A stretch of DNA of 39,968 bases, taken from sequence record OQ680138.1, one strand, 5' to 3'. This DNA is from Escherichia phage PH1061. The position numbers and the translations under genes are program-made. Positions within the stretch are counted from its first letter, which is position 1; each line of letters starts with the position of its first letter. Under the pieces are notes generated by a model, which had not been told where the DNA came from, ran no database searches, and saw nothing but the letters and a program-made list of their open reading frames with translations. Positions 35,162-39,968 of the stretch are shown here, piece by piece.

Positions 35162-36921
35162 GTAAAGACTTAGTGGCGCGTCAGGCGCTAATGACTGCCC
35201 GTATGAAGGCAGACTTCGTGTTCTTCCTGTTCGTTCTATGGAAAGCTCTGTCACTCCCAGTCCCGACTCGCTGTCAGATTGACATGGCGAAGAAACTATC
35301 GGCTGGGGACAACAGGCGCTTCATCCTTCAGGCGTTCCGTGGTATCGGGAAGTCATTCATTACGTGTGCCTTCGTGGTCTGGAAGCTATGGAACAACCCA
35401 GACTTGAAGTTCATGATTGTGTCGGCCTCAAAGGAACGAGCCGATGCGAACTCCATCTTCATCAAGCGAATCATCGACCTCATGCCTCAGCTTCAGGAAC
35501 TCAAGCCTAAGCAGGGACAGCGAGATGCGGTTATCAGCTTCGACGTTGGGCCAGCCAAGCCAGACCACTCACCTTCGGTTAAGTCCGTGGGCATCACTGG
35601 TCAGTTGACTGGTAGTCGTGCTGACATCCTGATTGCCGACGACGTGGAGGTTCCGAACAACTCAGCGACTCAGGCTGCACGAGACCGTCTGTCAGAGCTT
35701 GTGAAAGAGTTCGATGCTATCCTGAAGCCGGGAGGTACAATCATTTATCTGGGCACTCCTCAGAACGAGATGACCCTGTACCGTGAGTTGGAAGGACGTG
35801 GATACACCACTACTATCTGGCCTGCTCGTTATCCACGTGATAAGAAGGACTGGCAGTCTTACGGCGACCGTCTGGCACCGATGCTTCAGGCAGAGCTGGA
35901 AGAGGACCCTGAGTCCTTCTACTGGCGTCCGACTGATGAAGTACGCTTCGATGATACGGACCTGAAGGAGCGTGAGCTGTCATATGGTAAAGCTGGCTTC
36001 GCTCTACAGTTCATGCTTAACCCGAACCTGAGTGATGCCGAGAAGTACCCTCTGAAGCTCCGTGACCTTATCGTAGCCGACTTGGACCCAGCGTCCAGTC
36101 CAATGGTCTACCAATGGTTGCCGAACCCTCAGAACAAGCGTGAGGACGTTCCTAACGTTGGACTCATGGGTGACTCATACCACACGTATCAGACTGTAGG
36201 TTCTGCCTTCAGCTCGTACACCCAGAAGATTCTGGTCATTGACCCTAGTGGTCGTGGTAAGGATGAAACTGGCTATGCGGTACTGTATCAGCTCAACGGC
36301 TATATCTTCGCTATGGAAGTTGGTGGTATGCGTGGTGGCTATGAAGACTCTACGCTGGAAGCCTTGGCTAAGATTGGTCGTAAGTGGAAGGTCAACGAAT
36401 ACGTCATTGAGGGTAACTTCGGTGATGGTATGTACCTTGAGTTATTCAAGCCTGTAGCGGCCCGTGTCCATCCTGCTGCTGTAACTGAAGTGAAGAGCAA
36501 GGGTCAGAAGGAACTCCGCATCTGTGACGTTCTGGAGCCTATCATGGGGTCTCACCGACTTATCGTCAACGCTGCTGCTATCGTCCAAGACTACCAGACA
36601 GCCTCTGACAAGGATGGTGTGCGTAACCCTATCTACTCTCTCTTCTATCAGATGACCCGTATCTCTCGCGAACGTGGAGCCTTGGCACACGATGACCGAC
36701 TTGATGCGCTGGCTATCGGTGTACAGTTCTTCGTTGAGTCGATGGCTAAGGATGCCAACAAAGGCGAACGTGAAGTCACTGAGGAGTGGCTGGAGGAACA
36801 GATGGAGAACCCACGGAAAGGCTTCGAGTCCATCCACACTGAGTTCTGGGACAATGGGGTCCGGGTAACTCACAATACGGACGACGAGCTGGGACTAGGG
36901 TCCTACGTTACGTTCCACTAA
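35158..36921 (+). CDS. 19: Terminase large subunit, 587 aa, apparent TTG start
   Basis: Size of T7 gp19 (586 aa); RBS AAGGAGGT 6 nt before TTG; no in-frame ATG near the start. Confidence 0.93.
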
Positions 36922-36930
36922 CTGAGTGAA

Positions 36931-36979
36931 TAACTATAGGTGAAAGCTGCATGAATACGCAGTTAGTAACCTATAGTTA
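36931..36979. repeat. Perfect 11-bp inverted repeat TAACTATAGGT / ACCTATAGTTA with 27-nt spacer, immediately after the terminase gene
   Basis: Read from sequence; arms contain the promoter-core-like TATAGG on both strands. Confidence 0.8.
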
Positions 36980-37015
36980 CTACCAGTCTAACCTACTGTT
37001 TTACAAAGAGTTTGG

Positions 37016-37038
37016 ACTTAACTATCACTATAGGGAAG
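37016..37038 (+). promoter_or_regulatory. Phage RNAP promoter (phiOR-like), CTTAACTATCACTATAGGGAAGA
   Basis: Consensus match; lies between genes 19 and 19.5 as phiOR does in T7. Confidence 0.85.
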
Positions 37039-37217
37039 ACCCCCGGTTACTTATAGTATTACTGTAGTGAATATACATATGCAGACTTTATGCAAGACCT
37101 TAGGAGGCAGACTCCGAGTTCTTACCTAAGGCTTGCACCGATGGAAGGAGGTGATATTAATCATAATACCTCCAATACAGATAGTCACCGACCATAGATA
37201 CAGGAGGTATGTAGCAT

Positions 37218-37376
37218 ATGGCAAAGACCAAAGCTGTACTTAAAGCTCTGGCGACCAATCGAGCTACATACAGGTTTCTTGCTGCTGTTCTACTTGCTGC
37301 TGGCGTTACTGCTGGAAGTCAGTGGGTCGGGTGGGTCGAGACTCTCGTATGTTCTCTGGTCTCTCAGTGTAATTAA
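37218..37376 (+). CDS. Small hydrophobic protein, 52 aa (gene 19.5 position)
   Basis: Strong RBS AGGAGGT before ATG; predicted TM segment; below track cutoff. Confidence 0.6.
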   Translation: MAKTKAVLKALATNRATYRFLAAVLLAAGVTAGSQWVGWVETLVCSLVSQCN

Positions 37377-37437
37377 CGCAATCATGGTAACGATTCATGA
37401 AAGGAGGTAGTATGATCGGTTATGGCGAAGGCTGAAG

Positions 37438-37581
37438 ACCTAAGGTCAGTTCATAGCTGACGCTACTCTACTGACCTTAGCTACTGTAGTCAAGGACCTA
37501 AAGTAACACTATAGCAGTCCATGGTCTATCCCAAGGTCTCTGACCTACGGTATTGCCTACAGTAGCAGGGACTCCTAAGGA
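37438..37581. repeat. Array of degenerate heptamers (CCTAAGG, CCTAAAG, CCTACGG, CCTACAG) preceding the predicted right terminal repeat
   Basis: Read from sequence; analogous to T7 CCTAAAG short-repeat arrays flanking the terminal repeat. Confidence 0.6.
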
Positions 37582-37618
37582 GGGACGATGAGTTTTGGAC
37601 CAAAAGTTTGAGACCACA

Positions 37619-37825
37619 TCTCACAGTTCAAGAACCTCAAGTCTCCCCATAGGCCCTCTTTAAGTCCAGACCAAAGGCCCTACCCCAGTCTATCATAAGG
37701 TTAGACCGATGGTCAAGACTTCAGGTCAACGATAGGTCTAGGCTATGGCTGGAGGTCAGGACGATAGGTTGGGACTATGGGTCTTCTTTGAGTCTCTATC
37801 TGTATAGTGTTATAGTATAACATTA
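37619..37825. repeat. Predicted genome left end and terminal-repeat region (collapsed to one copy); begins TCTCACAGTT...
   Basis: TCTCACAG...CCCCATAGG... resembles the T7 left terminus (TCTCACAGTGTACGG...CCCCCATAGGGGG); exact repeat length not determinable from a single copy. Confidence 0.55.
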
Positions 37826-37828
37826 CGT

Positions 37829-37930
37829 CCTACAGCCTACAGTCTCACTAACCTACAGTATCAACCATAAGACACCAACACCTACAGTCATAGACCTACA
37901 GTTAATAGACACAAGGCTATAGACTTACGG
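37829..37930. repeat. Array of at least 5 CCTACAG heptamers plus a CTTACGG variant following the predicted terminal repeat
   Basis: Read from sequence. Confidence 0.7.
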
Positions 37931-38013
37931 TCAAAGACATGTTAGTCAAAGACTATATCCTCTTACACCATGAGGCCGACGATAGCTTAATCAATATTAT
38001 TTAAGATTACCTA

Positions 38014-38043
38014 TTGACTACAGGTCTAGACTATGGCTTAATA
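38014..38043 (+). promoter_or_regulatory. Host sigma70-type early promoter (A1-like): -35 TTGACT, about 17-18 bp spacer, -10 CTTAAT/TTAATA
   Basis: Read from sequence; position as T7 A1. Confidence 0.5.
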
Positions 38044-38154
38044 GCTTCCGTCAACACGACACGGCACCAACCGGATAGTGAAGACGCCGGGTCATCCCGG
38101 TTAAGTAGACAGCCTGATAAGTCATACGAACAACAGGCAGATGACAGAAAGTAG

Positions 38155-38184
38155 TTGACAAGCAGTAACGACTTAACGTAGTAT
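38155..38184 (+). promoter_or_regulatory. Host sigma70-type early promoter (A2-like): -35 TTGACA, 18-bp spacer, -10 TAGTAT
   Basis: Upstream block GGATAGTGAAGACGCCGGG...AGTAGACAGCCTGATAAGTC resembles the T7 A1-A2 region (CAACCGGATAAGTAGACAGCCTGATAAGTCG). Confidence 0.6.
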
Positions 38185-38205
38185 GCACCACATCAAGTCG
38201 TTACG

Positions 38206-38232
38206 ATTGATAAGCAGACAGAAAGTGTTAGC
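38206..38232 (+). promoter_or_regulatory. Possible third early promoter (A3-like), -35 TTGATA with suboptimal -10
   Basis: TTGATAAGCAGACAGAAAG resembles the T7 A3 -35 context; -10 unclear. Confidence 0.3.
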
Positions 38233-38333
38233 TTCCGGAGTTTGAAGTATAAGCGCCCGGGTGTTGTAACGGGTCTGCGCCGCTCTTTAACAATCTGGAT
38301 AAACTCTTAATGTGCGCCGATAGCGACTAACTA

Positions 38334-38365
38334 CAGGGTCTTTGAGTCTACATCTGAAGGCCCTG
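38334..38365 (+). promoter_or_regulatory. R0.3-like RNase III hairpin (9-bp stem CAGGGUCUU / AAGGCCCUG) downstream of the conserved CTCTTTAACAATCTGG box
   Basis: CTCTTTAACAATCTGGATAAA matches T7 CTCTTTAACAATCTGGTAAATAG upstream of gene 0.3. Confidence 0.55.
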
Positions 38366-38413
38366 ACTGATAGTCACTAACACACACACAAACAACTTTG
38401 AGAGGATATAACT

Positions 38414-38923
38414 ATGGAACGTAACGCTAACGCGTACTATGAGCTGCTGGCTGCAACTGTTGAAGCATTTAACGAGTGCATTCAGTACGACAAAATAGCT
38501 GAAGGTGATGACTACCATGATGTGCTGCATGAAGTCGTAGATAGTCATGTTCCGCACTATTACCACGAGATTTTCACGGTGATGGCTGCTGATGGTATAG
38601 ACATTGAGTTTGAGGACACTGGGCTGATGCCTGAGACCAAGGACGTAACGCGTATACTGCAGGCTCGCATCTATGAGGCATTGTATAACGACGTGTCTAA
38701 TAGCTCGGATGTGGTCTGGTTTGAGGCTGAAGAGAGCGACGAGGATGACGAATATTGGGTGGTTGACGCTACGACAGGTGTAATCATTGAGCAAGCTGTA
38801 TCACTTGATGTCGCTACTGCATGTGCCAAAGATCACTATGCGCTAGGTCGCCACCTGAAGGTCGAGGACATCAACGATAACGTAGTGTTCGACCCTGCGG
38901 CTGCTGAAGAGGACTGCGAGTAA
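38414..38923 (+). CDS. 0.3: Ocr-like DNA-mimic anti-restriction protein (gene 0.3) with a roughly 50 aa C-terminal extension, 169 aa
   Basis: [45 protein letters not shown] matches T7 Ocr [45 protein letters not shown]; T7 Ocr is 117 aa. Confidence 0.9.
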
Positions 38924-39382: not shown

Positions 39383-39582
39383 CTATGAGTCTTGCACTAT
39401 TGATAGCCATATGCTATGGACTTATCGCCTACGTGCTGGGGAGAGACATCAACAAAGCGCGTAAGGTCTACAAATTCAACTATGTACGTCTGGGTCGCTG
39501 GACTGTACGTCAACCTAACGGGCGATTCATGCGCAACTTAGCGAACGTCTGGGATATAGCAACTCTTGGGAGCAAACTGTAA
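39379..39582 (+). CDS. Small early membrane protein, 67 aa
   Basis: ATGA overlap with the preceding peptide; hydrophobic N-terminus SLALLIAICYGLIAYVLG; the track's TTG start at 39262 is less likely. Confidence 0.5.
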   Translation: MTMSLALLIAICYGLIAYVLGRDINKARKVYKFNYVRLGRWTVRQPNGRFMRNLANVWDIATLGSKL

Positions 39583-39908
39583 TGAGTAAATCTTATGGCA
39601 TCAACTTGGTCCATGCATTTGACGCAGACCTTAATCTGCTTTCAGCACTAGCTACAGGCTACCGTCACGGGACCTCAAGTCACACCATTCGTCAACAGCA
39701 GGAGCGTGACCGTGTACTACAGGCACGACTACGGGCCGAGGGACATAAGGCCGAGCTGATGTGTCTGGCGTATGGTGGACGACCAATCACCGACGATGGT
39801 AAACTTCTGGTCTCAGGCTGGAAGGCGATAGACCAACGGTCAACCATCAAGCACACGACTCATGGTGACTTCAGTCATCTTCACGCTAACCCACTGATAT
39901 GCAAGTAA
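39582..39908 (+). CDS. Hypothetical early protein, 108 aa, at the position of T7 gene 0.7; no protein-kinase motifs
   Basis: TAATG coupling with the previous ORF; the 3' end is duplicated at window positions 1..51. Confidence 0.6.
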   Translation: MSKSYGINLVHAFDADLNLLSALATGYRHGTSSHTIRQQQERDRVLQARLRAEGHKAELMCLAYGGRPITDDGKLLVSGWKAIDQRSTIKHTTHGDFSHLHANPLICK

Positions 39909-39913
39909 TTCTG

Positions 39914-39936
39914 ACTTAACTATCACTATAGGACTC
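39914..39936 (+). promoter_or_regulatory. Phage RNAP promoter upstream of the RNAP gene (same element as 57..79)
   Basis: TTAACTATCACTATAGGA. Confidence 0.7.
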
Positions 39937-39968
39937 AAGGTCTAAGACTCCAAGTGAAAGACCAAAGA

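Follow-up and report, generated by a model that had tools for sequence, protein, structure and literature searches.

We analyzed a 39,968-nt stretch of DNA from Escherichia phage PH1061 (sequence record OQ680138.1), which is referred to here as the window. The segment of interest is a junction located between gene 19.5 and the early host promoters with gene 0.3, in a genome which carries genes 18 and 19 of the T7 type. The features follow a T7-like order, namely gp18, gp19, a phiOR-type promoter, 19.5, a left heptamer array, a 35-nt block, the putative terminal repeat, ATCTGTA, a right heptamer array, A1 and ocr (Table 1). For context, gp19 is the nuclease and motor which cuts concatemers, and gp18 is part of the same enzyme acting at the junction.

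Table 1. Coordinates of features at the predicted junction of PH1061 and in its neighbourhood (positions in the window).
Feature	Position	Strand	Basis
Gene 18 homologue, small terminase subunit, 87 aa	34347-34610	+	Pfam DNA_Packaging_2, E = 4.7e-12
Gene 19 homologue, large terminase subunit, 587 aa	35158-36921	+	Pfam Terminase-T7_RNaseH-like, E = 3.4e-38
Phage RNA polymerase promoter, phiOR equivalent	37019-37034	+	Exact match to own consensus TAACTATCACTATAGG
Gene 19.5 homologue, 52 aa, last gene before the right end	37218-37376	+	ORF
Left heptamer array, 5 copies	37439-37580	+	Motif count; counterpart of T7 left short-repeat array
Inverted repeat CTAAGGTCAGT / ACTGACCTTAG, 11-nt arms, 19-nt spacer	37440-37480		Repeat search, 100% complementary
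35-nt block GACGATGAGTTTTGGACCAAAAGTTTGAGACCACA, directly left of the terminus	37584-37618	+	Conservation in relatives
Putative direct terminal repeat, single collapsed copy, 179 bp	37619-37797	+	Homology to two-ended relatives
Leftward sigma-70-like promoter inside the repeat (TTGACC, 18 nt, TG-n-TAGACT)	37687-37716	-	Promoter scan
ATCTGTA, preceded by T	37798-37804	+	Position of T7 class II pause signal ATCTGTT
Right heptamer array, 5 CCTACAG and 1 CTTACGG	37829-37930	+	Motif count; counterpart of T7 right short-repeat array
A1 homologue, early host promoter (TTGACT, 38015-38020)	38015	+	Local alignment to T7 A1
A2/A3-like host promoter (TTGACA-18-TAGTAT)	38155-38184	+	Promoter scan; local alignment to T7 A3
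Gene 0.3 (ocr, DNA-mimic anti-restriction protein), first left-end gene	38414-38923	+	Pfam ocr, E = 8.5e-31

The promoter upstream of gene 19.5 reads rightward through this gene and the junction, and phiOR of T7 is located at the same relative place. Its consensus had 12 matches in the whole window, while 0.24 were expected. At the position of gene 19.5, relatives annotate a CDS of 159 nt, which is labelled gene 19.5 in CR44b and T7. On the other side of the junction, the start of the early region is marked by host promoters (38015 to 38184). We found two convincing host promoters between 37800 and 38414 (38015 and 38155), as compared with three in T7. In the same interval we searched for an equivalent of phiOL and detected no phage promoter within 3 mismatches of the consensus; the alignment to T7 phiOL was weak. 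PH1061 thus has no phiOL-type promoter between the repeat and A1, in which it differs from T7 and from T3, where phiOL is present. The ocr homologue consists of 169 aa, as the coordinates of K1F gene 0.3 imply as well, and 117 aa are implied for T7. The Pfam ocr domain spans residues 8-96 only, which leaves a C-terminal extension.

The leftward promoter inside the repeat was kept in 13 of 27 distinct repeat sequences of relatives. It may be the counterpart of A0, annotated in T3 and T7; in T3 the leftward A0 is annotated inside the repeat, at a position other than in PH1061. Another sigma-70-like promoter, with an extended -10 element (TTGAGT, 17 nt, TG-n-TATAGT), was found at 37788-37816 on the plus strand and overlaps ATCTGTA. 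No intrinsic terminators were detected between 36800 and 38500. The Rfam scan of 36800-38600 gave no match at E≤1, therefore no known structured RNA explains the region. The open reading frames within 37438-37930 encode only 26-39 aa and are located on the minus strand. The "hypothetical proteins" annotated at the junction in some records are probably over-calls.

Further, we compared the window with deposited genomes. By BLAST, its first 25 kb showed 93-94% identity over 91-94% of length to several records of Kayfunavirus coliphages, while the junction region was 85-97% identical to hundreds of deposited records, Kayfunavirus included. On nucleotide similarity and gene order we assign PH1061 to Kayfunavirus (K1F-like, Studiervirinae, a relative of T7). 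Two near-identical Kayfunavirus genomes have been deposited as "Enterococcus phage EFA-1" (MT350292.1, flagged UNVERIFIED_ORG) and "Acinetobacter phage vB_Aba_01KA" (PV615262.1), and their host labels are probably wrong.

Positions 1-111 of the window are identical to positions 39858-39968 on the plus strand, which represents assembler overlap at both contig ends. After trimming one copy of this 111-nt overlap, the unit genome has 39,857 nt. The contig represents a circle which was closed in assembly and opened arbitrarily, and its ends are not the physical genome ends. It was opened within the early region, a short distance upstream of the gene for RNA polymerase at 149-2830, whose position in K1F is internal.

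The initial annotation had pointed to a sequence at about 37619 which resembles the left terminus of T7. We observed that TCTCACAGTTCAAGAACCTCAAGTCTCCCCATAGG begins exactly at 37619 and that 28 of 35 positions match T7, the first 9 nt included; the match also takes in CCCCATAGG. The left end is of the TCTCAYAGT type, since 37619 reads TCTCACAGTTCAAG, which equals the start of K1F. The T7 repeat begins TCTCACAGT and T3 begins TCTCATAGTTCAAG; the start of T3 (TCTCATAGTTCAAGAACC) is closer to PH1061 than that of T7. The sequence from 37619 (TCTCACAGTTCAAGAACCTC...) corresponds to the first bases of the K1F record NC_007456. The first 20 nt of K1F are found exactly at 37619-37638, and the identity to PH1061 takes in the first 45 nt of the repeat. 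Moreover, the 35 nt which precede the right-hand repeat copy of K1F are found exactly at 37584-37618.

The base homologous to 37619 is the start or the end of at least 12 related records. It is the first base in the records of K1F, SH3, SH4, Penshu1, YZ1 and several IMG/VR isolates; CR44b, KM02 and TM1 begin at most 2 nt from it, and two further records, in reverse orientation, end at it. The YZ1, TM1, KM02, Midid and Emlis records were found to start or end at the homologous base. Some of the ends of relatives were obtained by run-off sequencing or PhageTerm. For the Citrobacter phages SH3 and SH4, run-off sequencing on virion DNA located the ends (PMC4925675). When IMG/VR was scanned for exact matches, 7 records had the terminus sequence both at position 1-3 and at a distance of 179-196 nt from their end. 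We rejected IMG/VR contig 3300045988_000088 as an independent physical end, as it stops 179 nt past the repeat start and its last bases are not those of the repeat edge; we regard this as a coincidence.

The putative terminal repeat is present once in the 39,968-nt window. Exact repeats at both record ends have 178 bp in K1F, 184 bp in SH3, 191 bp in SH4 and 160 bp in T7; published repeat lengths are 183 bp for SH3, 190 bp for SH4 and 179 bp for K1F (PMC4925675). The repeat of Penshu1, starting at the same base, was determined by PhageTerm as 179 bp, and CR44b has an annotated terminal repeat of 183 bp. In the record of Providencia phage EPr2 (OM256482.1) a 179-bp "direct terminal repeat" is annotated twice, at 1-179 and 501-679; the junction segment is apparently duplicated there, possibly as an assembly artefact.

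To place the right edge, we used the record ends of relatives. Most of the two-ended relative records end with ...GAGTCYCT, while T7 and T3 end with ...GTCCCT, followed directly by ATCTGTT. As the right edge in relatives lies between ...GAGTCYCT and ATCTGT, we placed the repeat of PH1061 at 37619-37797. The edge of PH1061 reads ...GAGTCTCT and is directly followed by ATCTGTA. The edge of the K1F record maps to 37796 and that of the SH3 record to 37802. Among close relatives, the deposited right edges vary by as much as 6 nt (the same sequence is given as 178 to 184 bp), therefore the exact last base of the repeat is uncertain; we predict it between 37796 and 37802, with 37797 as the most likely position.

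The initial annotation had also proposed that the terminal repeat is collapsed to one copy, which agrees with our observations, as a single copy is present in a circularly closed contig with a 111-nt end overlap. K1F has two copies and the PH1061 record has one, collapsed by assembly. Collapsing of the two copies, with the repeat placed in the middle of a contig, is routine in short-read assemblies of T7-like phages (PMC10438801). The best explanation of the record is that the assembler merged both repeat copies, closed the circle and cut it at an arbitrary place.

Homology to relatives with mapped ends thus supports the earlier prediction that the physical genome ends and a terminal repeat are located here. 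We estimate the probability that the ends and the repeat are correctly identified at about 90%, and the region is best explained as the concatemer junction of a K1F-like (Kayfunavirus) relative of T7; the mechanistic steps discussed below are less certain. The virion DNA is predicted to be linear, with its left end at 37619 (TCTCACAGTT...). It would begin with TCTCACAG and end with ...GAGTCTCT (at about 37797), with the repeat at both ends, and the predicted virion genome would have about 39,857 + 179 = 40,036 bp.

We also considered that the true ends are located elsewhere, for example at the contig ends, or that the DNA is circularly permuted, with 37619-37797 being merely a conserved non-coding spacer. 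The ends at 37619 and 37797 in PH1061 are drawn entirely from homology, and many deposited relatives are written with the junction region in the middle of the record, which would fit such an explanation. However, the contig ends of PH1061 are the 111-nt assembler overlap inside the early region, and in relatives whose ends were mapped by experiment, the genome begins and ends at the sequence of 37619-37797. Where records have the region in an internal position, they are marked as circular or have no end repeat, which gives them the appearance of assemblies opened at an arbitrary place. In addition, PH1061 has a T7-type terminase. We therefore find ends at another place very improbable.

Compared with the K1F group, PH1061 has a few substitutions in the repeat, lacks 23 nt of the left array and carries an extra heptamer at 37497. 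It shares with K1F, SH3, SH4, CR44b and Penshu1 the edge motif TATCTGTA, the inverted repeat, the CCTACAG arrays and the flanking genes. The likeness to T7 comprises the beginning of the repeat, its ...CYCT end before ATCTGT, arrays of the same strand on both flanks, a phiOR-type promoter with 19.5 upstream, A1 with ocr downstream, and an inverted repeat about 160-190 nt left of the repeat. The T7 repeat has 160 bp as compared with 179 bp in PH1061, with approximately 59% identity overall. T3 has the same architecture of the edge (...GTCCCT before ATCTGTT) and flanking heptamers; its repeat of 231 bp is longer than that of PH1061 and contains six heptamers.

The 35-nt block left of the terminus was identical in 7 of 8 relatives aligned across it, with one substitution in CR44b, and it was exact in 11 of 21 further relatives. 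It resembles the T7 and T3 sequence ACCAYAAAAATCTGARTG..TA found at the same place. This conservation suggests that the block is probably a part of the site recognized and cleaved by terminase.

The arms of the inverted repeat occupy 37440-37450 and 37470-37480, and its centre is located 159 nt left of the repeat start. Folded as single-stranded DNA, it gave -11.2 kcal/mol (z = -4.4). ST31 and CtuP_B1 (of the latter, only the upstream part was used in the alignment) retain the arms despite a different spacer. Inverted repeats were also found 184 nt left of the terminal repeat in K1F, 190 nt left of it in T7 (39568-39608) and 184 nt left of it in T3. A hairpin end, maybe a processing intermediate, was reportedly described on T7 concatemers in 1990.

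Just right of the repeat edge, at 37805-37825, we observed a near-perfect palindrome, TAGTGTTATA-G-TATAACATTA. It is common to CR44b, Penshu1, Baskent and Zappy, while K1F, SH3, SH4 and ST31 have other sequence there. Right of the edge, PH1061 thus follows the CR44b/Penshu1 type (the TAGTGTTATAGTATAACATTA palindrome) and not the K1F type.

We then analyzed the heptamers on both flanks of the repeat. Those which the initial annotation had listed upstream were all present (CCTAAGG at 37439 and 37574, CCTAAAG at 37497, CCTACGG at 37544), together with CCTACAG at 37556. Downstream, the expected minimum of five CCTACAG copies was reached (37829, 37836, 37852, 37881 and 37895), and CTTACGG was found at 37924. 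The heptamers of the right array are usually embedded in (A/G)ACCTACAGT, and their spacings are 7, 16, 29, 14 and 29 nt. In the junction region CCTAMRG occurred on the plus strand only, with no copies on the minus strand. Ten of the 35 plus-strand CCTAMRG copies of the 39,857-nt unit genome are located within the 315 nt flanking the repeat, where 0.28 would be expected (36-fold enrichment; binomial p about 1e-13, a value which is inflated, as the motif was chosen after viewing the data). Any other segment of 493 nt had at most 2 copies. The clustering of CCTAMRG beside the repeat is not a matter of chance. Inside 37619-37797 we found no CCTAMRG, and a looser motif gave one copy (CATAAGG).

Same-strand arrays of CCTAnnG-type heptamers are thus present on both flanks of the repeat, and the counts at the T7 and T3 ends bear out the earlier suggestion that they mirror the T7 short-repeat arrays. 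With the looser motif C[C/A/T]TA[A/C/T][A/G]G, which was used for both phages, T7 has 8 heptamers left of the repeat, 4 inside and 12 right of it, mostly CCTAAAG at 13-nt spacing, and T3 has 6, 6 and 5, respectively. The right array of PH1061 differs from that of T7 in its heptamer (CCTACAG and not CCTAAAG) and in its spacing (14-16 nt and not 13 nt). Inside the repeat, the looser motif occurs once in PH1061, as compared with four copies in T7 and six in T3. Judging from these counts, the architecture of the arrays is common to three genera and the preferred heptamer differs, being CCTACAG in PH1061 and CCTAAAG in T7 and T3. A literature search for the heptamer CCTAAAG returned only unrelated primer matches.

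In 21 related contigs, the 260 nt upstream of the repeat contained 3-4 heptamers and the repeat itself 0-1; the contigs which extend far enough had 2-7 in the 250 nt downstream. In the left array of PH1061, approximately 23 nt (AAGCTCACTTAGGGTCATCCTAC) present in all aligned Kayfunavirus relatives are absent at 37519/37520. The heptamer CCTAAAG at 37497 is located where other aligned relatives read CTTTAGG. Four of the five positions of the left array carry a heptamer in aligned relatives.

This variability allows the arrays to be regarded as functionless, that is, as slippage-prone repeats which replication or recombination at the junction generates in passing and which persist beside the terminal repeat. 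Copy number varies between close, even near-identical phages, from 2 to 7, with approximately 5 extra 14-nt units in Zappy and one or two extra units in SH3 and CR44b, which fits neutral slippage. In Yersinia T7-like phages, a stretch with 11-34 such repeats separates the left repeat from the first promoter (PMC5923468), and the 23 nt missing from the left array of PH1061 fit the absence of function too. On the other hand, three genera retain one heptamer family, oriented alike and present on either side of the repeat, even though the remainder of their junction DNA is only about 60% similar. The heptamers at 37439, 37544, 37836, 37852, 37881 and 37895 keep their position in all aligned relatives, and the K1F-type repeat itself is free of heptamers. 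We therefore consider functionless arrays somewhat unlikely. The comparisons argue that the same-strand CCTAMRG arrays are conserved accessory elements of the junction. The packaging machinery may bind or pause at their successive copies; this is the weakest step of our account, and we consider such a role more likely than no role.

The motif at the right edge was conserved as well. The sequence TATCTGTA was present at this place in PH1061 and in 20 of 20 Kayfunavirus relatives whose sequence reached the site. In T7 and T3, ATCTGTT is located directly after the repeat. At class II signals, which have the core ATCTGTT, T7 RNA polymerase undergoes pausing or termination, and one of these signals is located at the T7 concatemer junction (10.1101/2021.01.11.426313; 10.64898/2026.02.12.705533). 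Such a signal is characterized by a pause or stop of the cognate polymerase 6-8 nt downstream of it. The signal is preceded by A, C or T (10.64898/2026.02.12.705533), and PH1061 has T at 37797. On the non-template strand, the edge motif of PH1061 is ATCTGTA and not the exact ATCTGTT, with 6 of 7 bases in common. Any change in the seven bases of ATCTGTT is reported to abolish termination by T7 RNA polymerase (10.1101/2021.01.11.426313). As ATCTGTA is not identical to ATCTGTT and the T7 signal is described as not tolerating changes, we did not classify it as a class II signal and treat it only as its positional counterpart.

Elsewhere on the plus strand, there is 1 copy of ATCTGTA and there are 2 copies of ATCTGTT, as compared with about 1.5-1.8 expected. 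Neither heptamer is depleted, therefore the sequence statistics give no independent support for a pause function; it is only the position and the conservation of ATCTGTA which suggest one. The RNA polymerase of PH1061 is 63% identical to that of T7 and keeps K172 and R173. T7 mutants altered in this region of the polymerase, for example R173C, fail to recognize the class II signal (10.1101/2021.01.11.426313).

ATCTGTA could also have been kept because it belongs to the site cut by terminase or to a host polymerase promoter, and not for pausing of the phage polymerase. It departs from the strict T7 signal at position 7, the repeat edge is located 0-5 nt from it, and the extended -10 site at 37788-37816 overlaps it. 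A 2026 preprint reports that the junction element of T7 acts as an E. coli promoter via a TGn motif (10.64898/2026.02.12.705533). Nevertheless, 6 of 7 bases, the preceding T and the position are found again in T7 and T3, two phages with documented pausing or termination, and the part of the polymerase which has been connected with class II recognition is conserved. For this reason we find such an origin of the conservation unlikely, and prefer pausing of the phage polymerase at ATCTGTA. A bolder and doubtful possibility is that the polymerases of Kayfunavirus, if they do pause at ATCTGTA, have a shifted pause specificity which co-evolved with the junction, and that the CCTACAG arrays might likewise be lineage-specific binding sites of the packaging machinery.

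In T7 and T3, each concatemer joint contains one repeat, terminase cuts at specific sites and the second copy of the repeat is synthesised (PMC10438801; PMC5923468). By analogy with these phages, replication of PH1061 would result in head-to-tail concatemers with one copy of the repeat per joint. Transcription from the promoter at 37019 would cross 19.5 and the repeat and pause at ATCTGTA. Prohead-bound terminase (gp18/gp19) would then recognize the core of the junction (37584-37644) and cut at both boundaries of the repeat. Finally, strand-displacement synthesis would duplicate the repeat, so that neither of the neighbouring genomes would lose it; the inverted repeat at 37440-37480 is a likely candidate for a fold-back primer in this duplication. 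In this scheme, we infer the roles of the 35-nt block, ATCTGTA, the inverted repeat and the heptamer arrays.

The feature as such is already known. It is an ordinary concatemer junction of the K1F type, and both K1F-type repeats and T7-type flanking repeats are documented. For practical use, the contig can be re-opened to start at 37619, with 37619-37797 appended at the right end, which would give a linear genome of about 40,036 bp. A correct linear genome matters for annotation, for taxonomy and for rebuilding the phage from synthetic DNA.

Understanding of how terminally redundant ends of the T3/T7 type are formed lags behind that of cos or headful packaging (PMC13595956, a 2026 review). Both the ATCTGTA variant and the function of the heptamer arrays bear on the question of how such ends arise. 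If the shifted pause specificity or the lineage-specific arrays were true, they would provide a natural pair of systems for studying the formation of T7-type ends.
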